In this document: positions 24,777 to 42,143 of the stretch, piece after piece
How positions within the stretch are numbered: position 1 is the stretch's first letter
How the letters are laid out: each line of letters starts with the position of its first letter
From: an uncultured virus (IMG/VR IMGVR_UViG_3300021256_004112)
Lineage: Duplodnaviria > Heunggongvirae > Uroviricota > Caudoviricetes
Length of the DNA: 54,665 nucleotides
Strand: one strand, 5' to 3'
IMG/VR virus record: IMGVR_UViG_3300021256_004112
The notes under the pieces: generated by a model
What the model saw: only the letters and a program-made list of their open reading frames with translations
The model's database searches: none
Told to the model about the DNA's origin: nothing
Position numbers and translations under genes: made by a program

Positions 24777-25393
24777 TGTGCCATCCCCTCATCCAACCCC
24801 ATATCGTTTGACCGTTGTACAGACGGGGTACGACGGGCAAGCTTACTTTTACGATTCGCTATCTGCGATACCAATTCCATATTGACCTTACCTGTTTCCC
24901 GTTCGATAATCCCCTTTTCCAAAAAACGGTCATAAACGACCTGAGAAACCATATTCAGCAACAAATCCCCTTTTTCTTCTGTCTGCTGGATATATTCTTT
25001 GGCTTTATCCTGTTTACCGTACCAGTCATAATAAAAAGCTTTTTCCAAAGAAGCAACGCATTCATCCATCTGCTCAATACAAGGGCGATGGGATTGCAAT
25101 ACCATTGCCGTTTCTTTACGCAGGACAGACGACATATCCGCATTACCCTGTGCCAACATACCCATATCATGCTGCAGTTTCTTTTCTATTTCCTTACGGG
25201 CGGCAACGATATGTTCCCGTTTATCATATCCGCCATACAGGACATTATATATAGCCTGTCTGCTTTTAGATACGCCCGTATCTTCTTCTATTCCCAAAAA
25301 ATCACGAAAGGGCTTGTCATATAATTCTTCAAACCGCTTACGGTCTTTTTCTTCTTGTGTCATAGTCAGTGTTCCATATATCTCCTTAAACAT
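24773..25393 (-). CDS. Hypothetical protein
   Basis: RBS GAGGT; ends RRTPSVQRSNDMGLDEGMAQ. Confidence 0.75.
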   Translation of the reverse strand: MFKEIYGTLTMTQEEKDRKRFEELYDKPFRDFLGIEEDTGVSKSRQAIYNVLYGGYDKREHIVAARKEIEKKLQHDMGMLAQGNADMSSVLRKETAMVLQSHRPCIEQMDECVASLEKAFYYDWYGKQDKAKEYIQQTEEKGDLLLNMVSQVVYDRFLEKGIIERETGKVNMELVSQIANRKSKLARRTPSVQRSNDMGLDEGMAQ

Positions 25394-25439
25394 GTCAATT
25401 ACCTCGCTTACTAAAACAATAAAATACATTCCTACCCAT

Positions 25440-25470
25440 AATGTACTATAAAAATTTTATATACTCCCTA
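25440..25470 (-). promoter_or_regulatory. TAGG-class promoter, copy 3
   Basis: TAGGGAGT-N17-TACATT. Confidence 0.65.
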
Positions 25471-25540
25471 ACAGAAGTCATGATAAACCCGCAATTAGAG
25501 AAAAATTAAAACCCTCTGCGACAAAACGCAAAGGGCTTAA

Positions 25541-25572
25541 ATTACAGAGTTTAACAGATTACAGAGTTTAAC
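25541..25572. repeat. 15-bp direct repeat, two copies
   Basis: ATTACAGAGTTTAAC at 25541-25555 and 25558-25572. Confidence 0.9.
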
Positions 25573-25657
25573 GGGCAAGTCCTTCTGTATTTACCTGTCG
25601 AAAAATAGACTGCAACCCAACATCTTTTACAGGTACGCCTTTTCTTTTAGCGTAATA

Positions 25658-26425
25658 TTACCTGCCCTTTTCAAATGTGTTACGCATTTTAAATCCCCGT
25701 TCCTGCGCCTGTTTTATCAACAACCTAAAGCTTGCTAACACTTTTTCAGCATTACGGTTATACGAAAGCAGATACCCTTTATTATTCCGTACATTATTAT
25801 CAAAAGCCCATTTTTCAATCGCATAAGCAAGTTTATTTTGTTTATCGGTCAATACAGGACTGCGCTTAAAATGAAAAACTTTAGTATTTTCATTTTGTCC
25901 TACATTCATTGATTTATCTGCTTTATCCTGCGCCTTTTCTTTAAGAGGAATAACAAATTTTTCCAATGGCATATCCTCTCGGGTCTTTCCAGCGAACAAT
26001 ATCGTTCGCTCATTCTCAAACTTTTTCAAAGCATACTCCTGCGTTAACAAAGTTTCCATGTACATTTTATTTTCACGACGTAACGCGTCCAATGCTTTTA
26101 AAAAAGTTTTGCTGTTTTCTTCTTCAAGACAAGTTTCAATGGATAATCTAAACTCATCCCGATAATTTTCGTCTACTGCATGATGCACAGACACTAAATA
26201 TTCCTCTGCGCCAGAAGCAATACATAAAGTACGTTTATCCCAATATGGTCCTTCAACGCGACAGTCGGCAACAGTTCCTTCTTTCTTATTACCTGCCATC
26301 AATCGAAACAAGTCTTGCACGATTTCAGGCTCTTTATCCATCTTATCCAAACTGACATTATAAACCTTGTCCGCAAGACCTTCCGGACTGTCCCATGAAA
26401 ACTCAAAATGTGCATACTGTAACAT
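25658..26425 (-). CDS. Hypothetical protein
   Basis: 255-aa ORF; ends KMRNTFEKGR. Confidence 0.75.
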   Translation of the reverse strand: MLQYAHFEFSWDSPEGLADKVYNVSLDKMDKEPEIVQDLFRLMAGNKKEGTVADCRVEGPYWDKRTLCIASGAEEYLVSVHHAVDENYRDEFRLSIETCLEEENSKTFLKALDALRRENKMYMETLLTQEYALKKFENERTILFAGKTREDMPLEKFVIPLKEKAQDKADKSMNVGQNENTKVFHFKRSPVLTDKQNKLAYAIEKWAFDNNVRNNKGYLLSYNRNAEKVLASFRLLIKQAQERGFKMRNTFEKGR

Positions 26426-26454
26426 AATATATTCAACCCCTTTCTTTGGGGCAT

Positions 26455-26485
26455 ATTGTACAACAAAACTGCAAAAAACTTCCTA
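26455..26485 (-). promoter_or_regulatory. TAGG-class promoter, copy 4
   Basis: TAGGAAGT-N17-TACAAT. Confidence 0.65.
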
Positions 26486-26562
26486 CAAGAAAAATCCCCT
26501 GCGCTGTTTTACAAACACAGGGGAAACACCAATTTAACTTTTTATATTAACTACTTCAATTA

Positions 26563-27630
26563 TCAAAGCTCTATATTATGGTCAATATGTTTTACATTAT
26601 CTTTCTTTGTACGGGGACGAGACAATGGACGGGATGCATATTCCCTAACCGTTGCCAAATTAACATCCATAACAAAACCATTGATGCGCTCCATATTCGG
26701 CTTATTGGGCAATACGCTATGTTCTGCAGCATACTTGAATTTTGTTTCCAAGTCATCTACCATTTCAAAGAATTCCGACTGGAATGTATGGTCATCCTTT
26801 TGATATTTACCCATACGGATATCCATCAAAAGGTCATGTTCCTTTTCCCGATAAGTATGCATCTTCCCTGTTTCCAACAATTCTGTACCCGTAAACAACA
26901 AACGGACTAAATGCATGGCATGTTTATTAAGATGGGCATCATCTTTCTTCCGATTCCGATGATTCAGTTTATCATACTGACGGATAACAGATTTCAATTC
27001 AGAAAACATACCATACGCATCATTTAACGGATAATCTTTCAGGTTCATGGAAGTAACCAAGCCGTTATCAGACAAAGCCACGGTAACGCCATACTGTTCT
27101 TTATATCGTTCATTGAAAGTAGACAGCGCGTTTTCCAAAGAACCCAAAATATGCCTGTCTTTTTCCTGTTTCGGGTAGGCATCATGCGCCAAAGCATTCT
27201 GCAAGCGACGAAGTTGTGCTGTAGCATACCCGCCAAAAGAGAACTGCGCCTTACGGGAATAAAACATATCCTGTTCAGCGATAAGACGCCGACCGATAGT
27301 ATCCAAAAACAGATAATCCTGTTCCCGTAACCCTAACATTTCCACCATGTTAGGATTACAATTAGCCAGCAATGGTACAGCCCGATTTAATGCGTATACA
27401 ACGGTATCCGTTTCATTATCTGTCCGTTGGCGGAAGCTTTCCAAACCCAACATATCCTCCACATTATTTTTAGCAATCCCGCGGATATCTACATCACTGG
27501 AAGGGATGTTTGTGCCATACGAATGACTGCCACCCAATCCTAACAGGACAATCCCTTTCATCCGTTCTTCCGTTTTTAAAAATGCGTATTCCGGCAAATC
27601 TAAAATCCGTTTACGTTCTTTTTCTTCCAT
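26563..27630 (-). CDS. Pol-beta superfamily nucleotidyltransferase (YcgL/RlaP-like)
   Basis: GGSHSYGTN...SDVDIRG, NCNPN..E.L, KHAMHLVRLL. Confidence 0.85.
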   Translation of the reverse strand: MEEKERKRILDLPEYAFLKTEERMKGIVLLGLGGSHSYGTNIPSSDVDIRGIAKNNVEDMLGLESFRQRTDNETDTVVYALNRAVPLLANCNPNMVEMLGLREQDYLFLDTIGRRLIAEQDMFYSRKAQFSFGGYATAQLRRLQNALAHDAYPKQEKDRHILGSLENALSTFNERYKEQYGVTVALSDNGLVTSMNLKDYPLNDAYGMFSELKSVIRQYDKLNHRNRKKDDAHLNKHAMHLVRLLFTGTELLETGKMHTYREKEHDLLMDIRMGKYQKDDHTFQSEFFEMVDDLETKFKYAAEHSVLPNKPNMERINGFVMDVNLATVREYASRPLSRPRTKKDNVKHIDHNIEL

Positions 27631-27651
27631 AATAAATCACCTTCCAAAAAT

Positions 27652-28167
27652 TCAATCAAAAAGCACAACTTGATTGTCATCTTCCGCAACGGCAGACAAT
27701 ATGCTTTCCCGATACGAATCAACTTTTCCGATATGAAGGCAAAGACCGCCAAATCCACGCATATTTTCATTTTGTTGTGGATAAACAGACTGGTACTTAT
27801 TATCCTGCTCATTCTTTCCATCCATCCATTTTGCGCTATATTCATCCATCGTATCATCTTCGTAATGAATAACTACACTAACTACATCAGAAAAGAGAAT
27901 AAGCCGGTCCGAAAATGGCATATAAGGTCGCTCATTCCCAACTAAAGCATCAAAAGAAGAAATTGCCTGCTTATCGACACCCTTCTTGAAGATAATGAAA
28001 ATATCATTTGCCGTTTTCGTACAGGATGCGACATTCCCTTCGTAGGCACACACATTTTCCGTAATGTCTGTAATATTTAAAAAAACAATATAATCTGCAG
28101 GAATCGTAAAATCTTCCAAGTTTTCAAAATTCAATTGAATGTCTTTAATTCTTTTATTTTCATTCAT
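27652..28167 (-). CDS. Hypothetical protein
   Basis: 171-aa ORF with RBS. Confidence 0.7.
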   Translation of the reverse strand: MNENKRIKDIQLNFENLEDFTIPADYIVFLNITDITENVCAYEGNVASCTKTANDIFIIFKKGVDKQAISSFDALVGNERPYMPFSDRLILFSDVVSVVIHYEDDTMDEYSAKWMDGKNEQDNKYQSVYPQQNENMRGFGGLCLHIGKVDSYRESILSAVAEDDNQVVLFD

Positions 28168-28197
28168 TCCCTTAATTCCTTTCTTTATTGACCCTTT

Positions 28198-29739
28198 TTA
28201 TCTTTCTAACGATTGCCCGTTCTTATTCCGTTCTGCCCATCTCTGCAAAGAAGAAGTAAGCATATTGCTTGAATTAAGCAACTGTCCCAGTTGCACTTTA
28301 TCTATCAACATACGATATGCCTTTTTAATAAGGTTCTTATCATTTCCGACAATTTCTTTTACAACATCGCCCCGTATTTCCAAATCACTGGAATGGACAG
28401 GCATTTGATGTTTAGCCATATCACGGGCAACAAGCATATTGTTTCTCAGATTTGATAAACGGAGCATATTTACAGGAGATAGTCCTTTTGCTTTTAAATC
28501 GGCTTGAAACACAAAAGAAAGGTTATTGACTCTTTCTACCAGTTCTTTTTGTGTACGGCATTGAAGCGCCTTACGACGAAGCCAACGCCGAATCTGCGTT
28601 TTATTTGCTGTTTCCAAGTACTGCTCGTCCCCATGATTCTTAATGCAAAAAACAACATTTTTTACAAAAGAGTCGCTATACCCTAAAGAAGTAAGCGCTT
28701 TTTGAGCAATAGAAGAAGAATACCCTTCATGTCCTTTATCGGATGGTTGCCCTTCCGAGTTAAAAGTGCGTACCCCTTCCAAGCCTTTCCCGCTATCATG
28801 GAACAACATGGTATAACGAAGCATGATGATAGCAGGAACTTCTTTTACGGCGATACGGGTATGTTTCCAAGCATTATAGCAATGGTATTTAGGATTTTGG
28901 GATAAATGCCTTAAATGGGTCAAGGAAGAAAATGGTGTGATGTAAGAAAGAGAATCGTTCTTTTTACTCAAACATGGGGCATCTACTAACCCGCTGGACA
29001 TAAAAAGCTTCAGTCCTTTATCGGGCGCATAACCTTCCAACAGTTTTTCCATTTCTTTTCGTACCCGTTGAACGGACAAATTTTTGGCATTGCATTCCTT
29101 CCAAAAATCTTTACGGACAAAAACATCACTGTTCGCATTCCCGTCTTCGACATAATCAAAACCAAGTTGGGACACAAAACGGCAAGCCCGATACATACGC
29201 AACGGGTCTTCCCTGTATCGTTTTTCTGCGTCGCCGACGGGACGGATGATTTTCTGAGCGATATCTTCCCTGCCATGGAACGGGTCAATGATATTCCCTT
29301 CAATATCCATTGCCATTGCGTTTATCGTGAAATCCCGACGGGCAAGGTCGTCCTCAATATTTTTACAGAAAGAAACTTCGCTGGGACGATGTGCGTCATG
29401 GAAATCGTAGGCATCCGAACGGAACGTTGCAATTTCGACCGCATGGATTTTATCAGGCAGGGCAACAACAACCCCAAAATTATTCCCAAGATTTTCGACA
29501 ACAGGGATGTCTTTTTCTTTCAAAAGGGCAATCATTTCATTAGGAGTTAAATCAGAAGTCAGGTCCCAGTCTTTCGGCTCAAAGCCCGTAAAAACATCCC
29601 GTACCGCCCCACCAACAACATACGGTTTTCCCCCAGCGTCAATGATTGTACTCATCATATCTTTCACATAATTTGGAATACATTGCGTTCTTTTATAAGA
29701 CAAGAAAGACATCGTTTCAGATGTATTTTCTTCTTTCAT
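28198..29739 (-). CDS. cca: CCA-adding enzyme/poly(A) polymerase-family nucleotidyltransferase with HD domain
   Basis: VGGAVRD..KDWD, EIATFR, DLARRDFTINAMA, EDPLR..RA.RF, RVRKE..K, QNPKYH...HT...LFHDSGK. Confidence 0.85.
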   Translation of the reverse strand: MKEENTSETMSFLSYKRTQCIPNYVKDMMSTIIDAGGKPYVVGGAVRDVFTGFEPKDWDLTSDLTPNEMIALLKEKDIPVVENLGNNFGVVVALPDKIHAVEIATFRSDAYDFHDAHRPSEVSFCKNIEDDLARRDFTINAMAMDIEGNIIDPFHGREDIAQKIIRPVGDAEKRYREDPLRMYRACRFVSQLGFDYVEDGNANSDVFVRKDFWKECNAKNLSVQRVRKEMEKLLEGYAPDKGLKLFMSSGLVDAPCLSKKNDSLSYITPFSSLTHLRHLSQNPKYHCYNAWKHTRIAVKEVPAIIMLRYTMLFHDSGKGLEGVRTFNSEGQPSDKGHEGYSSSIAQKALTSLGYSDSFVKNVVFCIKNHGDEQYLETANKTQIRRWLRRKALQCRTQKELVERVNNLSFVFQADLKAKGLSPVNMLRLSNLRNNMLVARDMAKHQMPVHSSDLEIRGDVVKEIVGNDKNLIKKAYRMLIDKVQLGQLLNSSNMLTSSLQRWAERNKNGQSLER

Positions 29740-29755
29740 ACTCCATTCCTCCTTA

Positions 29756-32011
29756 TCAATCCTTTTGATAATATTGGGCAAAATCGCTTATCCATTCAAC
29801 CAATAAAGTATTACGACGGATAATTTCGTTATTATATACTGCCCGTCGCAACGCTTTTTGTGTACCGACAATGACGAGCAGTTCTTTGGCGCGGGTAACT
29901 CCTGTATACAGCAGATTACGGTGTAACATACGCCAAAAGCTTGTCACGAGAGGAATGATGACGACTTTGTATTCAGACCCCTGTGATTTATGGATAGTCG
30001 CCGCATACGAAAGGATAATTTCGTCAATATCGCTTTTGTCATACGTGACAAACACGCCATCAAAATTAACCAGCAATTCCTTTTCATCATAATTAATGCT
30101 TTCGACAATCCCCACATCCCCATTAAAGACATTTTTGTCATAATTGTTTTTAATTTGCATTACGCGGTCGCCCACCTTAATACAATCATCCTTCCCTACG
30201 GGGAAAAACTCCATATTATGATTTAAAGAAGTCTGCAATGCTTTATTAAGGAGAATCGTGCCGGCCGGCGTATTTTTCTGCGGGGTAAGAATTTGGATAT
30301 CATCTACAGAAAATCCTTTTTGTGGCAACCGTTTTTCCATAAGATTTGTCACTATGGTAGCGGCTTCTTCAGTATAACGGGAAGGAATACGTTCCGTCAA
30401 AGGCACTTTCCGCCTGTCTAATTCCTTATCCACATCAATAAAAAAGAAGTCGCTGTTACTTCCGTTACGGATATCGGGAAATACGCCTTGATTGATTTTG
30501 TGTGCATTAGTAATAATACGGCTGCTTTCCGCCTGACGAAAAATCTTATTCAGACGGACGACAGGAAACATATCTGACTGAATCATATCATGAAATACAT
30601 TGCCGGCCCCTACACTGGGAAGCTGGTCAGCGTCCCCTACAAAAATAACGGACATAGTATCAGGCACAGCCAAAAGCAGATGGTACATTAACGATATATC
30701 AATCATAGAACATTCATCAACAACAAGGATATCACCGCTCAACGGATTATCCTCATTGAACTGGAACGAATTATCCTTACCATACCCCAGCATACGATGA
30801 ATGGTCTTTGCTTCTTTGCCTGTGGATTCTTTCATCCGTTTGGCGGCGCGTCCTGTTGGGGCTGCCAATAAAATTTTAGCGCCTGTAGACGAATAAGCCG
30901 CAAGGATGCCGTTAACGGTCGTCGTCTTACCTGTACCTGGTCCACCTGTTAATATCATGACTTTGTGGGATGTAGCCAGCTTGATTGCTTCCCACTGTTC
31001 GTCAGCGAACTTTTTATTTGCAAGATAGGATACCCGTTCCCTGTCAACGGAAAGATGGAAATTGCCATCGCCCTGAATTCGTAACAGCATAGAGGCTACG
31101 GAACGCTCCGCATAGTAATAGAACGGCAGGTAAACGGCTTTATCCTCTGCCTTTGTAATGTCTTTGCCAACGAATTTTACATAGGGATGCGCATCGGGTT
31201 TTTGGTCTGCCATATCATCCAATGACATGGTAACGACCTGTTCATCCACCCCAAGCATTTCCTGTGCCTGTTTAAGCAACGGTTTATAAAACATAAAACA
31301 ATTGCCCTGTTTAGTGTCTTCCCGCAACAAATAAAGAATACCGCTGCGAATACGAAAATAACAATCTTTAGCAAAACCAAGCCGTAAAGCGATACGGTCG
31401 GCAGTTTGGAATCCGATACCGTCAATTTCATCAGCAAGGCAATACGGGTTTTCCTGAATACGGGATACGCTTTGCACTCCGAATTTACGGAAAATCTTCA
31501 TAGCAAGCGCATCCGTAATATCGTTTGCTTTCAAAAATGTAAGGATATTACGGATTTCTTTTTGTTCATTCCAACTTTTGATAATTTTATTCAGACGGAC
31601 ATTGCCAATACCGTTTACATTCAATAACTGTTCCGGACACTGATTTAAAACATCAAATGTCTTAACGCCAAACATAACAACAATCCGTTTTGCGATGGCT
31701 TTGCTGATGCCTTTGACAAATGAGCTTGACAAAAACTTTTCAATCCCCTCTTTGGTTACGGGAAGATTCATCTCATAGTAAGTTAAAGAGAACTGACGGC
31801 CAAATTTCTCATGGCGTACCCATTCCCCTGAAAAACGATATGTTTGGTTTTTAGACTGTTGCAGGCTCACGGGAATCATCCCTACTACCGTTACTGCATG
31901 TTGGTGGTCAGTATCATAACAAAGCATTACGGTATAACCCGAATGCTCATCCCGATAAATATATTTTTCTACAAACCCATTGAAGGTTACTAAATTGTTA
32001 TTATCAAGCAT
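29756..32011 (-). CDS. recD2: RecD2-type SF1B helicase
   Basis: N-terminal GEW..H.KFGRQF, HhH repeats, GGPGTGKT, APTGRAA, DECSM, GDADQL, YAATIHKSQGSE, LLYTGVTRA. Confidence 0.95.
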   Translation of the reverse strand: MLDNNNLVTFNGFVEKYIYRDEHSGYTVMLCYDTDHQHAVTVVGMIPVSLQQSKNQTYRFSGEWVRHEKFGRQFSLTYYEMNLPVTKEGIEKFLSSSFVKGISKAIAKRIVVMFGVKTFDVLNQCPEQLLNVNGIGNVRLNKIIKSWNEQKEIRNILTFLKANDITDALAMKIFRKFGVQSVSRIQENPYCLADEIDGIGFQTADRIALRLGFAKDCYFRIRSGILYLLREDTKQGNCFMFYKPLLKQAQEMLGVDEQVVTMSLDDMADQKPDAHPYVKFVGKDITKAEDKAVYLPFYYYAERSVASMLLRIQGDGNFHLSVDRERVSYLANKKFADEQWEAIKLATSHKVMILTGGPGTGKTTTVNGILAAYSSTGAKILLAAPTGRAAKRMKESTGKEAKTIHRMLGYGKDNSFQFNEDNPLSGDILVVDECSMIDISLMYHLLLAVPDTMSVIFVGDADQLPSVGAGNVFHDMIQSDMFPVVRLNKIFRQAESSRIITNAHKINQGVFPDIRNGSNSDFFFIDVDKELDRRKVPLTERIPSRYTEEAATIVTNLMEKRLPQKGFSVDDIQILTPQKNTPAGTILLNKALQTSLNHNMEFFPVGKDDCIKVGDRVMQIKNNYDKNVFNGDVGIVESINYDEKELLVNFDGVFVTYDKSDIDEIILSYAATIHKSQGSEYKVVIIPLVTSFWRMLHRNLLYTGVTRAKELLVIVGTQKALRRAVYNNEIIRRNTLLVEWISDFAQYYQKD

Positions 32012-32059
32012 AATGAAATTCCTTTTTAAATGTCAGTACACGAAAATTTACCTACTTAT

Positions 32060-32095
32060 ATTATACACCATTTGCATTGTAATGTAAATACGCAA
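32060..32095 (-). promoter_or_regulatory. SigA-type promoter of the recD2 operon
   Basis: TTGCGTA-TTTACA-N17-TATAAT. Confidence 0.7.
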
Positions 32096-32135
32096 CATAT
32101 ATTTAAAAAAGCTGTAACAGGTAATCCTGCTACAG

Positions 32136-33530
32136 CTACAGGCGTTGGATAAGCACTCTTGAATAGGGAACAAGTAAAAACCCATCAACATTAGAAGCAG
32201 TAAAATATACCGTTTGCATTGGCTTTAATTTTGTAAATATCGTAAGGTTATGGTTTACGGGGATATGTTTTTTGCATACGGTATCATCCCGCCCGTGGTA
32301 CAACACATCTTTATAATATTTCAACGAAGTAAAGAAATTCGTGTTAGAGACACCCACAATACGAAAACGGGCAGTATGTGCCGAATCATTTGTGTTTAAT
32401 GAAAAGCCGTTTATAGCGACGGTATCCGTTAATGAATGGATGTCTTTCCCTACCGTTCCAAACCCCATAGGACAATCCGTTGCCTTCTGATTCGGTTGTC
32501 CCGATAAGGTAAAAAAAGAGGGAGATTTACCAGTCCTTTCGACAGACGGCAATCCGTTTGAACCGCAATGTCCCAAAAATCTTTGCTGATGCGAAATCCC
32601 ATGGTCCATCCTGTCCGTGATTGAACAATCCGCAGACATAGAAAATTTCTCTTTTTTTTTACAATCGGTTGGCACAATGGGATTCCAATAATCCAAAAAG
32701 GTAATAGGAACACCCATAATCCCTTTATAATCGCAGGGAATATCTTTAAGTTTATCTACATTGATGGCATCGTAGTTATCATATTTAGGATATTTCTTTT
32801 CAATGTCGGGCAAAGGTTGTCCATTATCATCATAATAACGGGCTTGCAAATCCAATGAATTTTTAGTTTTCAGTAAGGGAATATTCGTAAACCAGCCAAC
32901 ATTCCCAAACTTTTTAGGTTGCCCATTAATATCAACAAAGGTTGTAATATAATGTTCGCCAAACCACAAAGAATTCGCAATCACATAGGGAAAAACCTGT
33001 TTATAAGTAATTGCGTTCTTATTACCAACTAAAAGGATTTGCTTCTTCTTCTCCATCATCAAGGTAAAGAACTCGCGCCACAAAGAAAAGGGCGGATTCG
33101 TTACCACAATATCGGCTTTTTCCAGTAAAGCTAAACAATCTTTACTGCGAAAATCCCCTGCCCCATACATTTCATCCGCCCAAATCCTTTTCTTTTTAGA
33201 CGAATATCCCATTGGGTTTTTGACAGAAGCCTTCAGTACCAAAGCATACGAATAGGTGGCAGGAACAGGAGCAAATAACGAAGATTGAATACCTGCGTTT
33301 ATCTGTAATCCCGAAACCATTAATCCTTTGAGTCCCAACCGCACAAAATTCTCTTTAAAAAACAAAAAGAAATTACTGGAATTCGGGTCGTCACAATTAC
33401 AATAGACTGTCTTTCCTTTAAAATAAGGGACATACATATCTACTTCCTTACGGATATCATCCAATAAGGTATAGAACTCATCATTCTTATTCTGTTTTGC
33501 TGAATTCAAATTAAGATTTTTATTCGACAT
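32136..33530 (-). CDS. EcoRI-family adenine DNA methyltransferase, orphan (zero-frame isoform)
   Basis: KNDEFYT, VYCNCDDP, GDFRS, DIVVTNPPFS, YPKYDNYDAI, MGVPITFLD. Confidence 0.92.
   Translation of the reverse strand: MSNKNLNLNSAKQNKNDEFYTLLDDIRKEVDMYVPYFKGKTVYCNCDDPNSSNFFLFFKENFVRLGLKGLMVSGLQINAGIQSSLFAPVPATYSYALVLKASVKNPMGYSSKKKRIWADEMYGAGDFRSKDCLALLEKADIVVTNPPFSLWREFFTLMMEKKKQILLVGNKNAITYKQVFPYVIANSLWFGEHYITTFVDINGQPKKFGNVGWFTNIPLLKTKNSLDLQARYYDDNGQPLPDIEKKYPKYDNYDAINVDKLKDIPCDYKGIMGVPITFLDYWNPIVPTDCKKKEKFSMSADCSITDRMDHGISHQQRFLGHCGSNGLPSVERTGKSPSFFTLSGQPNQKATDCPMGFGTVGKDIHSLTDTVAINGFSLNTNDSAHTARFRIVGVSNTNFFTSLKYYKDVLYHGRDDTVCKKHIPVNHNLTIFTKLKPMQTVYFTASNVDGFLLVPYSRVLIQRL
32386..32517 (-). 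other. Alternative methyltransferase C-terminal cassette 2 (-1 frame)
   Basis: FFYLIGTTESEGNGLSYGVWNGRERHPFINGYRRYKRLFIKHK*, entered at T-TTT-TTT (32517-32511). Confidence 0.75.
32527..32660 (-). other. Alternative methyltransferase C-terminal cassette 1 (-1 frame)
   Basis: REIFYVCGLFNHGQDGPWDFASAKIFGTLRFKRIAVCRKDW*, entered at the A9 run (32660-32652). Confidence 0.75.
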
Positions 33531-33690
33531 ACCGCCAACCTGTAAAACAAAATTTATTCATCTTATTTTACAGATAAATCCATTATGTTGTCAATACCTA
33601 AACATTTATAACTCCATATTGCGTATTTACGAATAATGAGATACAATATACATAGAAAACGATTTCATTAATACGCATGGGAGACAAAAG

Positions 33691-34143
33691 ATGAATATAA
33701 ACATAAATTTTACGCCATTAGAAGAAGACTGTTTTGCTGAAGCGTTCAAAAAAAGAAAGATGGATGCTGCAGAATATGCTCAGTTTGCAATAACGGAACA
33801 AATGAAACGGGATGCAAGCATTTTGTTGCCTGGCGAAAAAGTAAAAGCAACTTTTTTCCATTGTTCCTTACATGGCGATATGTCAGATAATGCTATTGCC
33901 CTGTTAAAACTTCAAAACAATATAACGAAATATCCGCATTATCTTTGGGACTATTGGCTGGAAGAAGACAATGTATATGTAATAGCCAATCCGAATTATA
34001 GTAAAGATATAAAAAATTTTCTCAATACAATTCATCGCGGAATGTTATTAGAAACAAAAACGATTGGATTTATCCTCAAAGTCTTCAAAGAAGAAGAAAT
34101 TGAGGTAATCCATTGTGGAAAGCGTTATTTTCATAAAATTTGA
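33691..34143 (+). CDS. Hypothetical protein
   Basis: RBS GGGAG; promoter TTGCGT-N17-TACAAT at 33619-33647. Confidence 0.7.
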   Translation: MNININFTPLEEDCFAEAFKKRKMDAAEYAQFAITEQMKRDASILLPGEKVKATFFHCSLHGDMSDNAIALLKLQNNITKYPHYLWDYWLEEDNVYVIANPNYSKDIKNFLNTIHRGMLLETKTIGFILKVFKEEEIEVIHCGKRYFHKI

Positions 34144-34218
34144 CAAATAATATTATTAAAAGAAAAGAGCAAATAAAATTTACAAGTGTCAATAATTTTT
34201 GTAAAAGGGGTATATAAT

Positions 34219-34556
34219 ATGACAAAAAACATTCTGAACTTTTTGTTTCCATAAAACGAGGAATAGACAGCACAATGCAAGGAATTAAAGACAATTCCCT
34301 ACAAAGGGAATATCGTAGTTTAGACATTCCTGCATTACCTAAATTTTCACCAAAAGAAATAAAAGAGATAAGGAAGAAAACATGCGTTAATCGGAAAATT
34401 TTCGCTACCTATATGGGCGTATCTTATCAAACCGTTTGCGCTTGGGAAAAAGGAAATAAAAAACCATCCGGACCTGCTCGGCGATTATTAAGTCTTCTGT
34501 TTCAAAATCCTTTTCTTTTTCAAGACGGTCAAATACCTACTAACAAATCAATTTAA
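34219..34556 (+). CDS. HigA-like XRE antitoxin/regulator; first ATG out of frame (in-frame ATG at 34275)
   Basis: EIKEIRKKT...FA.YMGVS..TV..WEKG.KKPSGPA.RLL; the upstream SELFVSIKRG segment is -1 relative to ATG 34219. Confidence 0.7.
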
Positions 34557-34604
34557 CCGAAACACAGAATTAATCCAAATAAAACTAAATGTGCCTAAAA
34601 AAAA

Positions 34605-34639
34605 GACTCCCTGCAAAAATATTTAGCAAGGAGTTTTTT
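34605..34639. terminator. Bidirectional terminator
   Basis: GACTCCCTGC/GCAAGGAGTT between convergent genes, with A and T tracts. Confidence 0.6.
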
Positions 34640-34656
34640 ATATATATGTTCACAGC

Positions 34657-35772
34657 TTACATGCTTATCTCTTCTGATATATCTCTCTTATTCGGTCGAA
34701 CAGACTTCTTCGTTTTGGTTCGACTTCTATTGTTAGCAGGCCGTAAAAGATTCTTTCCTTTTTGTTGTTCCTCTTGTGTAATTCTTTCATAATCTATTCC
34801 TAAAATTGAAGCCATCTTTTTACCGTCAAGACATACCAATCGGTTACATTCTTGCACACTACTGTTATGGTCATAATCAATCCCGTCATTCACAATGACC
34901 TCTTGCATACGGAATAATCCGGGAACATCTTTAACAGGTTTTAGCGTCACATTATGCATTACACTTATATCTTCGCCTTTATAGGTAGAAAAAGAAATAC
35001 TTTCCATTCCTTCGGGTAGCACCAATCCATTTTTCACAGAAATATTCTCTGTATCCATTCCCTGTTGAAATAAATCATTAACACTTGCCTTTTTATTCCC
35101 AATGTACGCTTCGGCTACCAAAAAATGGGAATACAATCCCGATAAATCTTTCGCAAACACCTCTTTGCACACTTCGGTAACTGCATTGCCAATATCATTG
35201 GACTTAGGGATTTCGTTTTGCACGGAAGTTTCTTTTGTCGAAAAGCTTTGATGGAATTTGTCATTATTATGTTGGATTGTTTCCACAACCTTCTGTGAAA
35301 CATTTTCCCAATATGGTTCAGCGCTTTGAATCTGATACAAACATTTTCGCACTGCGTCTATATCATTTCCTGCGTAATAAACTTTACTCTTCTGTTCCAT
35401 TTCCATCATAGTTAACAACCCACGATACCGAGGTTCTATAGCCAACGAATCTTTATGTTCTTTTAGCAATTCCTCTTCCTGGCCACGGAACCCGGGATGC
35501 GTTTTTACAAACTTATCTACAGCAATTTTTGCCGTTAACCTGTCATACGCCTGCACTGTCTGGTCAAGTATCATCGGCACAACAGTAGCCCCTATAGTCG
35601 GCCCTGCAAGAACAGTAAGCACTCCTTGTATGCCAGGGTTGGCGCCTAACACACCGGCCCCATAAAACATAGCTCCGGCAGTAGCAGCCATTCCTAACGC
35701 ATAGCCTGCCGTCCCCATTTTTTCTTGCCCGCGAAACCAACTGGAAAATAATTCTGTACCAAAATTTTTCAC
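34657..35772 (-). CDS. Hypothetical protein with N-terminal hydrophobic Gly/Ala-rich hairpin
   Basis: Two hydrophobic segments; ends RTKTKKSVRPNKRDISEEISM. Confidence 0.75.
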   Translation of the reverse strand: MKNFGTELFSSWFRGQEKMGTAGYALGMAATAGAMFYGAGVLGANPGIQGVLTVLAGPTIGATVVPMILDQTVQAYDRLTAKIAVDKFVKTHPGFRGQEEELLKEHKDSLAIEPRYRGLLTMMEMEQKSKVYYAGNDIDAVRKCLYQIQSAEPYWENVSQKVVETIQHNNDKFHQSFSTKETSVQNEIPKSNDIGNAVTEVCKEVFAKDLSGLYSHFLVAEAYIGNKKASVNDLFQQGMDTENISVKNGLVLPEGMESISFSTYKGEDISVMHNVTLKPVKDVPGLFRMQEVIVNDGIDYDHNSSVQECNRLVCLDGKKMASILGIDYERITQEEQQKGKNLLRPANNRSRTKTKKSVRPNKRDISEEISM

Positions 35773-35787
35773 AGCACACCCTGCTTT

Positions 35788-36222
35788 CTATCTTATTGCC
35801 TCATTTTTTTCAAAATCCTGCTGATTACTATTCTGCTTTGGTCTTCGCAAAGAAACCTTTTTACTTCTCTTTTCTCTGTCTTTTCCCATCGCTTGCAAAA
35901 GATTATGTTTTACGACTGAAATTGCCTGCTCTGCGTCCTCTTTCAATTCTTTTGAAGCATTCCCCCGAGTACCTGCTTTTCCGTCCTGTACCCATTCCTC
36001 ATAAAGGACATGAGGAACCGTTCTGTCCCTTTCACATGTCAGATATTCATTCGCATCATATAACACGGTCCAAAAATCCCGTCCTTTGTCTTTTGTACTG
36101 TAATCTGAATGGGAAAGAATATAAGAAGCCCCATGGCTATCAAACTGAACCAACAACGAAGGCTGGAAGTCCTCACCCTTTGGGTTCATATTTTCTGCAG
36201 ATAATACTTTTATATTTTCCAT
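35788..36222 (-). CDS. Hypothetical protein
   Basis: RBS GAGGTGG; basic tail. Confidence 0.7.
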   Translation of the reverse strand: MENIKVLSAENMNPKGEDFQPSLLVQFDSHGASYILSHSDYSTKDKGRDFWTVLYDANEYLTCERDRTVPHVLYEEWVQDGKAGTRGNASKELKEDAEQAISVVKHNLLQAMGKDREKRSKKVSLRRPKQNSNQQDFEKNEAIR

Positions 36223-36238
36223 TTTTCGTCCACCTCTC

Positions 36239-36895
36239 TTATTTTGGTTGATATCCAAGCTGAACTAAATTAGCTGTTGCGTAATCTTTTAATATACAAG
36301 GCTGATAGTTTGCTTCCGCAAATACATGTTGCCAAAACTGTTTGGCTTTCTTATTTTTCTCTAATACATAGAGGCAATATGTACCTTTGTGGGTTTTCAT
36401 AAACTCAAACACAGCATTCCGCATAAATCCTTTTTTACGATACGCAGGCAGCACGAATGATTCCTCAATGTAATAATCCGCATCAGGATGGCAGTTTTTC
36501 CCATACCCCATGACAAGGAAACCAATGACGGTATCCCCGTCCTTAATGTCAATCCATGTGGTACACGGACCAGCATAGACGGAACAAAACGATTCCATAT
36601 CGGTCATATCGTTGGTCGGTCCTTCATTAATAGAACGCAACTCTTCAAGATACTGGAAGAACAGGTTCTTACGCAATTGAAAATTGGCAAACCAATCAGT
36701 TTCTTTTTCTTCCCGTTCCAACCAACACAAAATAGCATTCTTTATATCAGCTTTATATTCTATTCCTTTCTGCTTACCGATACCCGCCTGTGCCGAATAA
36801 AGGTAATGGATAAAAGACGGGGTTAACATTTCTTCATACAAAATATCTGCCGCCCGTTCCGCACGGAAACTACGAATTTCATTAAAATGGTTCAT
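36239..36895 (-). CDS. GNAT-family acetyltransferase
   Basis: IGFL, YIEESFVLPAYRKKGF, VLEKN..AKQFW. Confidence 0.85.
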   Translation of the reverse strand: MNHFNEIRSFRAERAADILYEEMLTPSFIHYLYSAQAGIGKQKGIEYKADIKNAILCWLEREEKETDWFANFQLRKNLFFQYLEELRSINEGPTNDMTDMESFCSVYAGPCTTWIDIKDGDTVIGFLVMGYGKNCHPDADYYIEESFVLPAYRKKGFMRNAVFEFMKTHKGTYCLYVLEKNKKAKQFWQHVFAEANYQPCILKDYATANLVQLGYQPK

Positions 36896-37404
36896 TTGCT
36901 TTTCACCTCATGGTCGTACCCATCCCAAATCCGCCACATCGTTTTCATGTTATGCCAATCTTTACGAATACAGGATACCGTATAAGAAATAACCATTCCT
37001 GCAATAAAAGCTAACGCAATATCCAAAAAAGAGGATGGCAATGTATTGAAAATGTAATAAGCATCTACTTTATATTTCCAAAACCGAACGGCTTCCCGCA
37101 AGACGGATAACAGCATACCAAGAGAAAATAATATCAAAAAGACTGCGATACAAAGACGGACGGAAGATTTTAACCTTCTTTGATACCATTCTTTCTGTTT
37201 TATGCGGCCGCAAGGAACACTATTACTTTTACTGCAGCCACACTTTGTCGCATCCCCTTGCAATACACCAAATTCACATTCCCAACAGTATCGTTTCATA
37301 CATTTTGCAAAAAGCCATGCAACGAAACGGACAGATAAACCAATCCAAAGAATCTGCATCATTATGTACAGCAACATATCCAATAAAGAAAACATAGCTT
37401 TCAC
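36892..37404 (-). CDS. Membrane protein (about 3 TM) with a Cys cluster
   Basis: Hydrophobic segments; CWEC...CGC...C. Confidence 0.65.
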   Translation of the reverse strand: MKAMFSLLDMLLYIMMQILWIGLSVRFVAWLFAKCMKRYCWECEFGVLQGDATKCGCSKSNSVPCGRIKQKEWYQRRLKSSVRLCIAVFLILFSLGMLLSVLREAVRFWKYKVDAYYIFNTLPSSFLDIALAFIAGMVISYTVSCIRKDWHNMKTMWRIWDGYDHEVKSK

Positions 37405-38039
37405 CTTTCCATATCAGAAACAGCCAATCGCTTTTTTACTTCCCATTCCTTCTTTTCTTTCTTGACCTCATTTTCAAACATAAGCGAATAGAATTCCATT
37501 TTTTTAGAAACGAAAGACTTACGCAGTAAAGAAGTAGGCGTTTTGAAATATTTTGCTTTTTCCATTGGCACAAACTTAGGTTTTACCATAACATTGATAA
37601 CGGCATGCTTTTGGTAAAGATTAACAGTATCGCCAACACCAATTAGGGTAACATCCCTTAATGCGCCTTTTTTCACCTTCTGTGCCAACTCTTCCATAAA
37701 AACTTCTAACCGTTTTGGAAGCGGTTTAAAACCCAATTTTCCCTGTTTATCCAACTCCACTTCATCCGAGGTAAGAGGCGACGGCATAGAATAAAAGACA
37801 TTATTTTTCACTGATGTTTTCAAAAACATCACTACATCTGAAAGCTGCTTATATTCCGCTTCGCCCTGTGGGCATCCATACCCTTTATCAAGTATGACAT
37901 TCAAAAAAGCGTCCTTTCCTGCTACAGCATAACTCGGCCGAAGCTCAATATATTTTATTGGCAACAGTTTTTCTTTTTGTGCTAAATCGCGAATAGCAAT
38001 AAGTAAATCCAAATCATTCCGATTGATTGCATTTTCCAT
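37401..38039 (-). CDS. Hypothetical protein
   Basis: Ends KKRLAVSDMER. Confidence 0.75.
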   Translation of the reverse strand: MENAINRNDLDLLIAIRDLAQKEKLLPIKYIELRPSYAVAGKDAFLNVILDKGYGCPQGEAEYKQLSDVVMFLKTSVKNNVFYSMPSPLTSDEVELDKQGKLGFKPLPKRLEVFMEELAQKVKKGALRDVTLIGVGDTVNLYQKHAVINVMVKPKFVPMEKAKYFKTPTSLLRKSFVSKKMEFYSLMFENEVKKEKKEWEVKKRLAVSDMER

Positions 38040-38042
38040 ATT

Positions 38043-38651
38043 TCACATCCCCATGCTTATATTTTGCTCCTTGTGATGTTCCATTTCTTTATGATGCATG
38101 GCTTTCTTCTCCCTTTGTTCTCTGTTATATTCATTCGTCCGCTCAAAAATCTTAATTTCTTCCCGCATCAACAACGCAAATTTATCGCGGTCCATAAAAT
38201 TATGGCAGAACATACGGGCGGACTGCTCGCAAAGATTGGCCAGCTTATCATTCAATAAATGACCAGAGGCAGACAATTCTTTATTAAACTTTGAAAAATT
38301 ATTGGGAACACGACTCATTAACAACACAGGATAATGGGTTTCTGATACATCATCATAAACAGAAGAATAAAGCCTTTCCCCATCCTGTTTTACATTCTTA
38401 GACACATGACGGGCGACTTTTTCCTGATAAGATAAAATTAAACTTTCCTTCACCTTATCCACATCAACAGGTCTACCCACATTAAAATGTTGCGCTAAGA
38501 ATTTAGCTTCTTTTGGAAAACCAAATGACTGGATATCCAAAACCAACTGGTCTTTATCCTTAATCGTCATCTTTTTACGCAAAACGCCGATACTTTCCAA
38601 TGCCCGCATAAAACTCTTATTGCTTAATTCATCCATCTTATTTTCCATCAA
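38043..38651 (-). CDS. Hypothetical protein
   Basis: Ends KEQNISMGM. Confidence 0.75.
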   Translation of the reverse strand: MMENKMDELSNKSFMRALESIGVLRKKMTIKDKDQLVLDIQSFGFPKEAKFLAQHFNVGRPVDVDKVKESLILSYQEKVARHVSKNVKQDGERLYSSVYDDVSETHYPVLLMSRVPNNFSKFNKELSASGHLLNDKLANLCEQSARMFCHNFMDRDKFALLMREEIKIFERTNEYNREQREKKAMHHKEMEHHKEQNISMGM

Positions 38652-38654
38652 AAA

Positions 38655-39212
38655 TCACCTCGAAGCTTCTAACCCGTTATTTTTCAAATTCTCAGAAGCG
38701 GGTCTCTTCAAACTAACTGTTTTATCATAGCGTTCCACCCACATTCCTAACTGCTGGCAAATAACTTTCGGCGCTCTTTCATCCATAAGGAAATTCCCGT
38801 CACGGATAGAATCTATAATTCCCTTATAACAGGAACGCTCCAAGGAGTTTAACGGTTTCCAAACCTGTAACATTCCCTCGTTAAACACTTCTTTTTCCTT
38901 TTCTGTACGGTGTTCCGTTACGAATTGCACCATATCTTTCATTTTGCTGAACAATGCAGGTCTATCCGTTTTAATTTCCTGTAATTTTTGCGTTGCGCGG
39001 GTAGCATACCAAAGCGCTTTTTCCAAATCTTCTTTTCCGTTCTTGTGATGGGTACGCCATGTGTACTTAACAACATTCTGTAAATCCCCGGCAATCTCAC
39101 CTACATATCCGCCAACAGCTACAGCAATATAATCAATACATTCAACCTTACCCTGTCCCGCATAATGAGAAGGGTGGTTGACCATATCTTGTGCTTCTTT
39201 TTTACTTTCCAT
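38655..39212 (-). CDS. DUF3310 (SaV-like) domain protein with C-terminal extension
   Basis: DMVNHPSHY...ECIDYI...NVVKY.WR..KNG.EDLEKA.WY. Confidence 0.85.
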   Translation of the reverse strand: MESKKEAQDMVNHPSHYAGQGKVECIDYIAVAVGGYVGEIAGDLQNVVKYTWRTHHKNGKEDLEKALWYATRATQKLQEIKTDRPALFSKMKDMVQFVTEHRTEKEKEVFNEGMLQVWKPLNSLERSCYKGIIDSIRDGNFLMDERAPKVICQQLGMWVERYDKTVSLKRPASENLKNNGLEASR

Positions 39213-39232
39213 ATCATATTCTCCTTTTTTGC

Positions 39233-40189
39233 TTATCGCCCACATTCTATCGTTTTCCCATCACGGTAAAGATTCCACTTTTCCGTCAGTTCTTTTTTCT
39301 TTTTAATCAGCAAAGGTCCGCTTTTTCCACCAGCCAGTCCCTCAATTTCTTTTTTATGTTCTTTTATAAAAGTTTTGGCCATATTCATCCGGTCTTTTAC
39401 CTTCTTTTCCGTAGAAAGCGCCAATTCTCTTTTTTCCTTAAAATAGGGCAAAATAAGGACAGGAATGCAATCTTTCGTTTTTACGACAGCCGACAACTGA
39501 TGGGTTCCGTCCTTTTTATGAATCCATCTTGTCAAAAAATACGGCTCTTTATGACGGGTGCATTTCCGTATCATATAACTATCCTGTTCCAATATCCGGT
39601 CTTTTTCTTCCATTTCTTTCAAACAGGTATCAAACATCTTAGAACAGGAATCATCCGAACTCCAGCCATGAAAATTCCGTTCTCCCGTACTCCGAATCAG
39701 GAAATTCCGTTCCATCTCTTCCCACAGAGAATTACGGCTGACAACTTCCCGTTCCAATATTTCCATAATGTTTTCTTTCATGTTGTCTTTGTTTTGCTGG
39801 TAAATTTCCTGTACTTTTTCTATGGAACAGTCATAGATTTCGGTTGACCTCTCAGAACGCCCCATATATCGGAACGAAAGGAACGCATGATTTTTCAATA
39901 CATCTTCAATTGCCTTCCCTTCCTCTTTATCACACACGGCAGTCAATTCCATTGGATGTATATAAACCTCTCTGCCGTTCTTCGTCATGGTGGCACAGCT
40001 TATTCCGTCCCTTGGGTTATATTGCCAACCCCTCTTTTCCAATACAGGAAAAACAAACTTTTTAATCTCCATATTAAAAGCTGCAATACGGTCAGGGTCG
40101 CCACCCTTACCCCATTCATAACCAGAATCAACCCGAAACTGTATATTTTCCATCTTTTCCACATCAGATGGTATTTGTAAAGGTTTCAT
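39233..40189 (-). CDS. Hypothetical protein
   Basis: RBS AAGGGGG; ends IECGR. Confidence 0.75.
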   Translation of the reverse strand: MKPLQIPSDVEKMENIQFRVDSGYEWGKGGDPDRIAAFNMEIKKFVFPVLEKRGWQYNPRDGISCATMTKNGREVYIHPMELTAVCDKEEGKAIEDVLKNHAFLSFRYMGRSERSTEIYDCSIEKVQEIYQQNKDNMKENIMEILEREVVSRNSLWEEMERNFLIRSTGERNFHGWSSDDSCSKMFDTCLKEMEEKDRILEQDSYMIRKCTRHKEPYFLTRWIHKKDGTHQLSAVVKTKDCIPVLILPYFKEKRELALSTEKKVKDRMNMAKTFIKEHKKEIEGLAGGKSGPLLIKKKKELTEKWNLYRDGKTIECGR

Positions 40190-40205: not shown

Positions 40206-42143
40206 TTACACACGCCCAATCCCGTCTTGCCTGTCTGCAGACTGTGATAAAGGACGGGATGCTGTCAAAGAACGATACGGCGACATATCATTCTGTATCA
40301 TCTTAGCCGCAGTCTGTATGGGACATTCCCGAATCGCCACATTCTTATTGGCATCATAAAAATGAAGCTTCCAATAAGGCGGGAAACGCAGTACCAAAGT
40401 ATCAATATTTTTATCTTTCCCCACAGGCTTGCCTTTCCGCACCATATATTCCGGCACCTTGAAAGACCAGCCCTTTTTATCGCCCTTTGCCATACGAAAA
40501 GTACGGAAACGGTTATTACGGTTATAAGAAGAAACATTAACCTGCTTATCCTGTAAAGGAAAATCCTGCATACGGTCAGCAAAGACGACAATCGTTTGGT
40601 AATTATATTGCGGTTTTGATATTGGTTGTAATGCTTCTGCTACTTTTGATTGGGAAACCTCTACTTCCTGCTGTTCCTTATCATTCACAACCGAAACGCT
40701 TGGCATTGACTGATTTTGAGATATTGTCTCTTCTTTCATTTCCTGTTTGTCGTCTTTCCCGTTTTCCTGTACAACAGGGATATCCGAAGATTTATGTTCG
40801 ACAGATTCAGTCGGTCTTATTTCCACATTTTCCTTTTCTGCTGTTTTTTCAATATCCGCCTTCTGTTCTGCAGCCTCTTTTACTTCAACTTTTTGTTTTG
40901 TTTCTTCCTGTTTTTGTATTGCCTCTTGCTTTTCTTCTTTTTTTTTAGTCTGTTCCACATGCATCAATCCTAAATCAAACGCATGCGGGGTAAGCAGTTT
41001 TGGCTCTTTATCGCCTTTGAACAAGATTAAGAGATTGCCCTTTTCATTCTTGCCGGTAAAGATACCTTCACCAAAAACATTATGGACGATAACAGCGCCG
41101 TCTTTTAATGTTTCAGCGATTTCTTTTCCTTTATTCCCATCTATTGTTTTTCCGTTGCTTAATACCACACTCGCCTTTTCATTCTTCCCTGACGGAACTG
41201 ATTTATTCTCCGTTTCAGGAAAAAGAATCCCCTGCGAATCCTTGTCTGTAAAAGTCGCTTCTTTTACCGTTGCGGCAGTTGGGATTTTACTGACGGGAAG
41301 AACTTCCTTTTCTTCCTGTAATTGTGCTTTATTTACTTCACACTCATACATAAATTCTTTTAACCTGCATAAGTCGCAGGAAGGGATTAAGGAAGAGTCC
41401 ATTAAATCCAAATCCAAAGGAAGCTCTTTTTCTTTGACAGGTTTATACTCTTTACCTGCTTCTGTATTTAAAATCATATCGTATGCTTCTAACTCATGGA
41501 TGACCAAATGGTCATTTCCCTCTTTACGGGAAGAGAATACAGACGCATAATCCCCAAAAAGCTCTTCTGAAAAAGAAGTTCCATAAACCCTGTCCACTTC
41601 TTCTAAATAATGAGAGACAGGATTATCAAGAACAGGATTTTCACCTGCACCCAAGGAAGTCGCAAAAGACTGGATAGACGCTTCCAAGGAAGCAAGCTGG
41701 CGAAAATCGTCTTCCATGCCAGCTTCTTTAATTTGCGGATACCGCTCCATATAATCCTGCTGAACAGCATCCACCTCATTACTATCCGCTATTTGAAGGG
41801 AAACAAAATTACGGGAAGGAACAGCAATTTCCATCCCATTATCCGACAGCGAAGGCAGGTTATCAATTGCGTCCCTTGCCTGTTGCATATCCTGTTGCAT
41901 CTCTTCCAAAGGAATAAAGCCTTTCGCATAATCATCCATAGAATCAACCAACAAATTCATCCGACGCACAAATCGGAGCATTTTGAAAAAATCAGGTTTA
42001 GACATGGAAGCCGTATCAATACTTTCCACGATATGACTTTTATATGCGTCCACATCCAATCCGCGGTAATACGGTTTATTGTTTTTAGCCATCCCGCCAT
42101 ACTTAGCAAAATCTTTAAGTTCTTTCGTAGTTAAGACTTTCAT
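40206..42143 (-). CDS. Multidomain hypothetical protein with a Tudor/SH3-like module
   Basis: GAVIVHNVFGEG...LLILF motif, charged linker, ends ASRPLSQSADRQDGIGRV. Confidence 0.75.
   Translation of the reverse strand: MKVLTTKELKDFAKYGGMAKNNKPYYRGLDVDAYKSHIVESIDTASMSKPDFFKMLRFVRRMNLLVDSMDDYAKGFIPLEEMQQDMQQARDAIDNLPSLSDNGMEIAVPSRNFVSLQIADSNEVDAVQQDYMERYPQIKEAGMEDDFRQLASLEASIQSFATSLGAGENPVLDNPVSHYLEEVDRVYGTSFSEELFGDYASVFSSRKEGNDHLVIHELEAYDMILNTEAGKEYKPVKEKELPLDLDLMDSSLIPSCDLCRLKEFMYECEVNKAQLQEEKEVLPVSKIPTAATVKEATFTDKDSQGILFPETENKSVPSGKNEKASVVLSNGKTIDGNKGKEIAETLKDGAVIVHNVFGEGIFTGKNEKGNLLILFKGDKEPKLLTPHAFDLGLMHVEQTKKKEEKQEAIQKQEETKQKVEVKEAAEQKADIEKTAEKENVEIRPTESVEHKSSDIPVVQENGKDDKQEMKEETISQNQSMPSVSVVNDKEQQEVEVSQSKVAEALQPISKPQYNYQTIVVFADRMQDFPLQDKQVNVSSYNRNNRFRTFRMAKGDKKGWSFKVPEYMVRKGKPVGKDKNIDTLVLRFPPYWKLHFYDANKNVAIRECPIQTAAKMIQNDMSPYRSLTASRPLSQSADRQDGIGRV

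Follow-up and report, generated by a model that had tools for sequence, protein, structure and literature searches.

The window, that is, the whole stretch of 54,665 nt analysed here, carries on its minus strand a methyltransferase gene with an unusually organized 3' part (Table 1). Residues 7–284 of the gene match positions 1–292 of the 345 of Pfam model PF13651 (E 2.9e-84; 283.8 bits, curated cut-off 26.4), and the PADLOC model MTase_II also matches it (E 4.8e-79). The NPPF motif is invariant in the homologue alignment. The core model (residues 10–224) resembles class I SAM methyltransferases, with a best Z of 10.1 (rmsd 3.4, 143 aligned residues) and a match to M.TaqI at Z 8.8. A Foldseek search with the model of the methyltransferase gave no match at E 0.001 or better, and a sequence search for PDB relatives returned none. 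The gene is a member of PF13651, and m6A activity is predicted for its product.

RecD2 is encoded downstream of the methyltransferase gene, and a 150-aa ORF without a family match lies upstream. No cognate nuclease, and hence no type II restriction-modification pairing, was found among the neighbours scanned. The sigma-70-like promoter has to be read as a consensus match, since shuffled sequence contains 7.8 such sites and the region itself 9; one terminator-like hairpin was found, against 1.5 in shuffles. In relative X3, a 1431-nt insertion is located at 33573–33577, just upstream of the gene and inside the promoter-like site. Because the gene is an orphan without a nuclease neighbour and has its own promoter- and terminator-like sites, self-protection of a mobile element is its likely role.

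The element has genes at 1310–3241, 28198–32011, 26563–27630 and 9567–10484, which include those for BamA/Omp85, RecD2 and a CCA-type nucleotidyltransferase. It also carries an RlaP-like nucleotidyltransferase, an IteA-like AAA ATPase (below the cut-off) and many genes without a family match, and its overall appearance is that of a large plasmid, or of a phage-like element, from a diderm host. The best matches of the BamA-like gene (37–41%) are in genomes of the phylum to which a Butyrivibrio locus belongs, and a Negativicutes host may be proposed. Positions 50657–52933 encode a 758-aa protein with a C-terminal metallo-beta-lactamase fold, whose best matches are RNase Z-like, far below the NCBIfam cut-offs.

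Table 1. Features of the methyltransferase locus (window coordinates)
Feature	Position	Strand	Remarks
Methyltransferase gene	32136..33530	minus	PF13651, EcoRI family; orphan; zero-frame product of 464 aa
Common core, residues 1–284	32679..33530	minus	from alignment; NPPF catalytic motif; ends at the GVPITFLDxxNP junction
A9 run	32652..32660	minus	leads into module 1; heptamer A AAA AAA in frame at 32658; a -1-frame TAA overlaps the run
Module 1 (tail 1)	32527..32658	minus	-1 frame, own TAA stop; would give a 334-aa product
T7 run	32511..32517	minus	exact register T TTT TTT; leads into module 2; lies three codons past the module 1 stop
Module 2 (tail 2)	32386..32517	minus	-1 frame, own TGA stop; would give a 381-aa product
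Zero-frame read-through linker, 104 codons	32367..32678	minus	spans modules 1 and 2; predicted disordered
Module 3 (tail 3)	32136..32366	minus	zero frame; end of the 464-aa product
Possible stem-loop	32462..32510	minus	just 3' of T7; -18.4 kcal/mol; weak candidate stimulator
20-nt inverted repeat	32509–32528 and 32643–32662 (arms)		85%; arms are the T7 and A9 sites
Sigma-70-like promoter	33565..33594	minus	11 of 12 consensus matches
Intrinsic-terminator-like hairpin	32110..32137	minus	directly 3' of the last stop

The -1 frame of the methyltransferase gene contains two complete C-terminal modules, each with its own stop. A preliminary description of this DNA had placed these modules and given product lengths of 334, 381 and 464 aa; all coordinates and lengths hold when recomputed from the window DNA. 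Single-base gains at A9 and at T7 were computed to give the 334-aa and 381-aa products, respectively. Translation also confirmed the earlier remark that the zero frame stays open across both -1 modules, where the linker has no family match; the +1 frame is likewise open across module 1. Each run is closely preceded by a -1-frame stop, which limits entry into either module to a stretch of about five codons.

The tails belong to the C-terminal part of the protein, because the catalytic domain spans approximately residues 10–224. In the AlphaFold model, linker residues 287–386 have pLDDT values under 50, and module 3 is folded (pLDDT 72–92). Module 1 modelled alone has strands at both ends, like module 3, in a single-sequence model of low confidence (mean pLDDT 66).

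The tails were compared with 122 homologous proteins plus homologous loci, so that the E-values given refer to these small local sets. Module 1 has 62% identity over 37 aa to the in-frame tail of protein P0028 (E 4e-12, 122-protein set) and 50% to P0007. Module 2 has 48% identity to P0050/P0055 and 57% to locus L090, with 48–57% overall among the in-frame tails of P0050, L090, L119 and L148. For module 3, identity is 54% with P0003 and 43% with the one tail of P0039. What the zero frame encodes across modules 1 and 2 gave no family match in the local set (best E 0.3–0.6). The proposal that the -1 peptides are family C-termini is thus borne out by their 62% and 48–57% identity to natural in-frame tails, and the gene holds three complete family C-terminal modules, each matching natural tails.

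The slippery runs had been proposed to stand at the module starts, and among the 464 codons of the gene there are exactly two X XXY YYZ heptamers in frame, one at each module entry. The background is 74 heptamers in 11,868 codons of 36 other, hand-picked ORFs of the window; from this background, the chance of heptamers in both 5-codon entry windows is about 0.001. The A9 run is one of only two A/T runs of at least 9 nt in the 54,665 nt. The other one, at 40938–40946, lies inside a 649-aa ORF (40206–42155).

A control set of single-tail genes comprised 128 homologous modules, not all of them independent, after 5 of 133 had been dropped as known switch loci. The first 40 codons were open in the frame +1 to the module in 7 of these modules, in the frame -1 to it in 1, and in both in none; in the window, both off-frames are open over module 1. 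From the stop densities, with modules that are partly non-independent, P is about 0.002 for the open zero frame of the window and about 0.007 for the open +1 frame over module 1. Protein P0121 keeps the same frame, without a stop in the linker. The three-tail architecture is real and well supported, and the zero frame of the methyltransferase gene is under selection to remain open.

The surroundings of the two runs were folded in search of frameshift signals. The structure 3' of T7 reaches z -2.0 on 61 nt and z -1.2 on 91 nt, and nothing significant was seen 3' of A9 (z -0.7 and -0.2); by these folding z-scores, a convincing stimulator was found at neither site. According to the accessible text of PMC5009743, E. 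coli shifts far less readily on A AAA AAA and U UUU UUU than on A AAA AAG, and 9-nt runs of A or T support efficient slippage of RNA polymerase in vivo. Nine nucleotides is also the cut-off used for phase-variable mononucleotide tracts in the accessible part of PMC7383803; the A9 run reaches it and T7 falls below it. The A9 and T7 sites also form an inverted repeat, for which no role was found; the region 25000–40000 has no other such pair within 150 nt. An inversion between the arms of this repeat was tried in all 21 registers, each of which gives a 306-aa truncation, and a shufflon-type switch was rejected as well, the plus strand between the repeats encoding no module.

Four close relatives of the gene were compared as contigs (X2, X3, X4 and X6; 4 of 22 listed runs, from four studies), the gut of sheep and goats being the habitats listed for relatives. 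The four diverge from the window at approximately 4–5% of sites (about 95–96% identity) and, since most substitutions are common to them, amount to about one further lineage. The lengths of A9 and T7 are unchanged and the gene is free of indels in all four, a comparison made among close kin and on contigs, which drop rare variants. Over modules 1 and 2, 11 substitutions are found among the 40 of 156 rows listed: five are silent in the zero frame, three in the -1 frame, and three change both. Eight of these 11 alter the -1-frame residue; with only three -1-silent, the comparison gives, at this distance, no clear signal that the hidden tails are under purifying selection. None of the substitutions listed for the four relatives creates a stop in the zero or -1 frame, and one of them creates a +1-frame stop in X2 and X6.

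Locus L190, from another assembly, is identical to the window (2096/2096) and is not independent of it; it alone had the window's layout in a pattern scan of metagenomes. Among the best 120 protein matches, none has the window core with tail 1 or 2 in frame, and the cluster has only two members. Protein searches with the tails alone, which returned the window itself in one case, 14 representatives in another and five proteins in a third, added no new member of the hidden-tail clade.

More distant proteins were analysed by a back-translation test for hidden modules, based on a library of 184 modules and 60 shuffles, with the window as positive control (z 9.2). Hidden -1 modules were detected in the linkers of P0003 (z 10.7), P0004 (z 8.7), P0017 (z 4.5) and P0007 (z 11.9). 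In the +1 frame, z did not exceed 2.4 anywhere in the test (0.3 for P0003 and 0.6 for P0004). Ten of 120 proteins were flagged with a hidden module, all strongest in the -1 frame, and four further proteins lacked the anchor motif; the -1 bias is partly due to the fewer stops in that register (0.068 vs 0.106 per codon). The orthologues P0003/P0122 and P0004/P0123 (50% and 46% overall identity to the window protein) have a -1 tail of the module 2 type ahead of a tail of the module 3 type, as in the window, and all four are in the read-through state.

The linkers of P0003 and P0004 cannot encode a homopolymer longer than 5 nt or a dinucleotide repeat longer than 6 nt before the module. In both proteins, codons compatible with G GGT TTR and C CCT TTY sit exactly on the first Phe of the module, and such tripeptides occur at only 2 of 60 and 4 of 58 positions of the linkers; these heptamers are deduced from protein rather than DNA, and the agreement follows in part from Phe being encoded by TTY. 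In P0017, heptamer-compatible codons, also deduced from the protein, come one codon after the module start. It is possible, though rather doubtful, that in the clade of the window, P0003 and P0004 programmed -1 ribosomal frameshifting has replaced a DNA-repeat switch, and that one fixed gene would thereby address up to three target motifs.

The idea that homologues share the design of frame-hidden tails was substantiated across the family, both by the hidden -1 tails of the orthologues and by repeat tracts. In a survey of 200 gene clusters, 194 of which have a complete tail, 17 of the 194 have a repeat tract followed by tails in at least two frames. The loci were picked by similarity to the query and are non-random, L190 was excluded, and the repeat units sought were of 1, 2, 4, 5, 7 and 8 nt, units divisible by three being outside the scope. 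All three frames are shown by 18 of the 19 listed switch loci, and the units of the tracts are G, GA, GACA, CAGC, GAGAA and AACGG, plus 7- and 8-mers. Long-repeat switches are found in many groups (L057, L059, L083, L084, L090, L093, L096, L097, L122 and L135), and further three-frame switches with long repeats are L192, L200, L238, L244, L251, L252, L264 and L265. Cultured carriers of a three-frame switch are Fibrobacter intestinalis (L096, G10) and Riemerella columbina (L084, GAGAA x12). Three other loci, L246, L195 and L080, were rejected as switches and left uncounted, as they look like single indels in ordinary tails. A set of 401 genomes of one class contained 22 matches, none with the layout of the window, and 401 genomes of one phylum contained 5 matches. 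The DNA of P0003, P0004 and P0017 turned up neither in these genomes nor in scans of viral sequences and metagenomes.

Allele pairs were also recognized. L057 and L059 are GA7 and GA6 alleles with different tails in frame and 1078 of 1120 positions identical. P0008 and P0154 have identical cores (301/301) and diverge from a Gly run onward; 47 of 47 linker positions of P0154 are compatible with an off-frame reading of the P0008 tail. No hidden module was detected in the P0008 linker of 21 residues (z -1.1), which is expected because P0008 is the in-frame allele. Further pairs are P0018/P0153 (254/260), P0017/P0022 (253/260) and P0023/P0035. In P0008, P0018 and P0017 the switch is located just after the junction, the same position as A9, and P0153 apparently has two repeat tracts, like the window, the second linker reaching only z 3.8. 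As far as can be read from the sequences, these pairs show DNA-level switching in the PF13651 family.

GVPITF heads are repeated before each tail in L090, L097, L200, L264 and L265, which suggests that the tail arrays arose by tandem duplication. Arrays do also collapse, since P0028, P0155 and P0156 keep only a short linker remnant before one tail. P0003 and P0005 have cores identical at 288 of 297 positions and tails that diverge right after the junction (an array in one, one ordinary tail in the other), which may reflect either tail exchange by recombination or a chimeric contig.

Frameshift-dependent specificity has precedents. The closest is the type IIG system of H. pylori (JHP1272, i.e. 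Hpy99XIV, and HP1353-HP1354), in which a shift of frame changes both the recognition part at the C-terminus and the methylated motif, from GGWTAA to GGWCNA (Krebes et al. 2014, accessible text of PMC3936762). It resembles the window, as far as that text describes it, in having two homopolymer tracts in one methyltransferase gene, of which the first acts as an on/off switch and the second adds a single further domain in series; the window, in contrast, has three mutually exclusive tails with their own stops in overlapping frames, no nuclease domain, and A9 and T7 as tracts. In NgoAV of Neisseria gonorrhoeae and in the three-TRD HsdS of Mannheimia haemolytica, tract length shifts specificity instead of switching it off (accessible part of PMC7383803). 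As described there, these hsdS switches work on a separate S subunit by truncation or extension, whereas the alternative tails of the window are stored in different frames.

In dnaX-type recoding, E. coli uses -1 ribosomal frameshifting at A AAA AAG, and Thermus thermophilus uses transcriptional slippage along a run of 9 nt (accessible text of PMC5009743). The window gene is similar in that one gene would have different C-termini through a slippery run. The dnaX-type product is a truncated form, whereas each shift in the window would give access to a complete alternative domain; a strong stimulator was not detected there. With M.EcoRI and M.SsoI the window gene shares the PF13651 core and the NPPF motif. 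An ordinary PF13651 gene has a single tail and, in most cases, a nuclease gene beside it; the window gene has three tails and is an orphan.

The preliminary description knew of no report of this arrangement. For PF13651, indeed, no description of alternative tails in overlapping frames was found in the literature covered, mainly openly readable texts without supplements. The arrangement is not mentioned in the accessible text of the GeneTack survey (PMC3711429), the cluster tables of which could still list the PF13651 family, nor in that of a 2025 review (PMC12707154). On the other hand, a two-state frameshift precedent is published (PMC3936762), and the window appears to be a short-tract member of a widespread switch. 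The overlapping-frame tails are therefore a new form of the already known frameshift-switched methyltransferase specificity, with the change of motif presumed here from the tails.

Three enzymes, each marking its own DNA sequence, can probably come from this single gene. Plain translation would give the core with the disordered linker and tail 3 (464 aa). At A9, a -1 event in which RNA polymerase adds an A or the ribosome slips would give the core with tail 1 (334 aa), and a -1 ribosomal slip at T TTT TTT the core with a short linker and tail 2 (381 aa). The design could be a short-tract derivative of the repeat-driven three-frame phase switch of the family, and A9 may additionally phase-vary at a low rate. 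The tails are quite probably interchangeable target-recognition parts, so that the isoforms would methylate different motifs and together shield the element from several restriction specificities of its hosts. We base this role of the tails in motif choice on two points, their placement outside the catalytic domain and the analogy with class A methyltransferases: M.EcoRI is nearest to the class A topology, and class A has its recognition part outside the catalytic domain (accessible text of bioRxiv 10.1101/2023.12.13.571470).

As to how the hidden tails would be reached, we tentatively favour the reading in which one fixed DNA allele yields more than one enzyme by slippage at the level of expression. 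In its favour are the tail identities and the placement of the runs, the unchanged A9 and T7 in the four relatives, the kept frame of P0121, the orthologues that retain a hidden tail with heptamer-compatible codons but have no room for a long repeat, the shortness of T7, the polymerase slippage described for 9-nt runs, and the orphan state of the gene. Speaking against it are the low efficiency of both heptamers in E. coli, the weak or missing stimulators, the few -1-silent substitutions, and the DNA-level switching of relatives whose switch has the same upstream layout. The preliminary description had put the emphasis on -1 ribosomal slippage; heptamers do stand at both entries, but there is no convincing stimulator, and the route demonstrable in the family is DNA repeat-length switching, which that description gave only as an alternative. 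Pure phase variation is the closest competitor, possible if less probable: slipped-strand changes at A9 and T7 would set one tail per copy, and the population, not the cell, would carry the three specificities. A10 would then select tail 1, A9/T8 tail 2, and A9/T7 or A8/T8 tail 3, with A8/T7 as a dead end of 359 aa. It agrees with the switch clusters (17/194) and with the allele pairs, among them L057/L059 and P0008/P0154, which include switches at the very position of A9 and, in P0153, seemingly two tracts. The A9 run also meets the 9-nt cut-off, a T8 allele would let a single A tract reach all three tails, and the open +1 frame over module 1 (P about 0.007), relevant to base-loss events only, points the same way, but this frame is interrupted by a stop in X2 and X6. 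Moreover, tract-length variants are seen in none of the four relatives, no protein with tail 1 or 2 in frame occurs among the best 120 matches, T7 is short, and P0003 and P0004 are unable to hold a long repeat.

We regard it as unlikely that the gene is a locked relic, an ancestral three-frame switch that lost its long repeat and became fixed on tail 3, its hidden tails persisting through recent decay and the open zero frame. The lack of an excess of -1-silent changes among the 11 substitutions, the new +1-frame stop in two relatives and the collapsed arrays of P0028, P0155 and P0156 are what such a relic would predict. Nevertheless, the pair of hidden and terminal tails is still recognizable in proteins only 46–50% identical, the listed differences of the four relatives include no -1-frame stop or indel, and the only heptamers of the gene are both at module entries. 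An inversion switch, an assembly artefact or chance is very improbable. The A9 and T7 sites do form the arms of the 20-nt, 85% inverted repeat, the sole such pair in 15 kb, but inversion truncates the product to 306 aa in every register and the plus strand lacks a module. The same sequence in another assembly and the layout in four relatives argue against an artefact, and chance is excluded by the tail identities, the 0/128 open off-frame controls and the heptamer placement.

If expression-level recoding is the true reading, approximately 100 codons would be under two-frame constraint, in a gene for a multi-specificity anti-restriction enzyme. The clade of the window may then show a shift from heritable switching, with one state per copy, to recoding, with all states at once, which would suit an orphan protective enzyme. 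One annotated ORF would hide two more enzymes, and gene callers would for that reason undercount the methylation specificities of mobile elements. For the family, three tails behind one repeat would turn phase variation from an on/off choice into a three-way choice of specificity. Frame-locked isoforms, with one core and tails of 40–80 residues that differ, would offer a direct test of where PF13651 proteins read DNA.

Some observations concern the neighbourhood of other family members. A gene with a conserved IRPxYQR-like motif, which we take to be DUF262-HNH, follows the methyltransferase in 114 of 178 single-tail clusters and in 6 of 11 multi-tail clusters, a set that misses the long-tailed loci. 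Should the methylase change its motif while the nuclease next to it stays the same, that nuclease may owe its specificity to the methylase. The genome behind L096 (G002) has four PF13651 copies, some tails of which were inspected. A tail of the module 1 type is fused to a GGPPC-motif gene in L053 and stands directly before one in L226 (the same locus as L162); this partner is presumably a C5-cytosine methyltransferase, and the association hints that tail type may track a particular recognition site.
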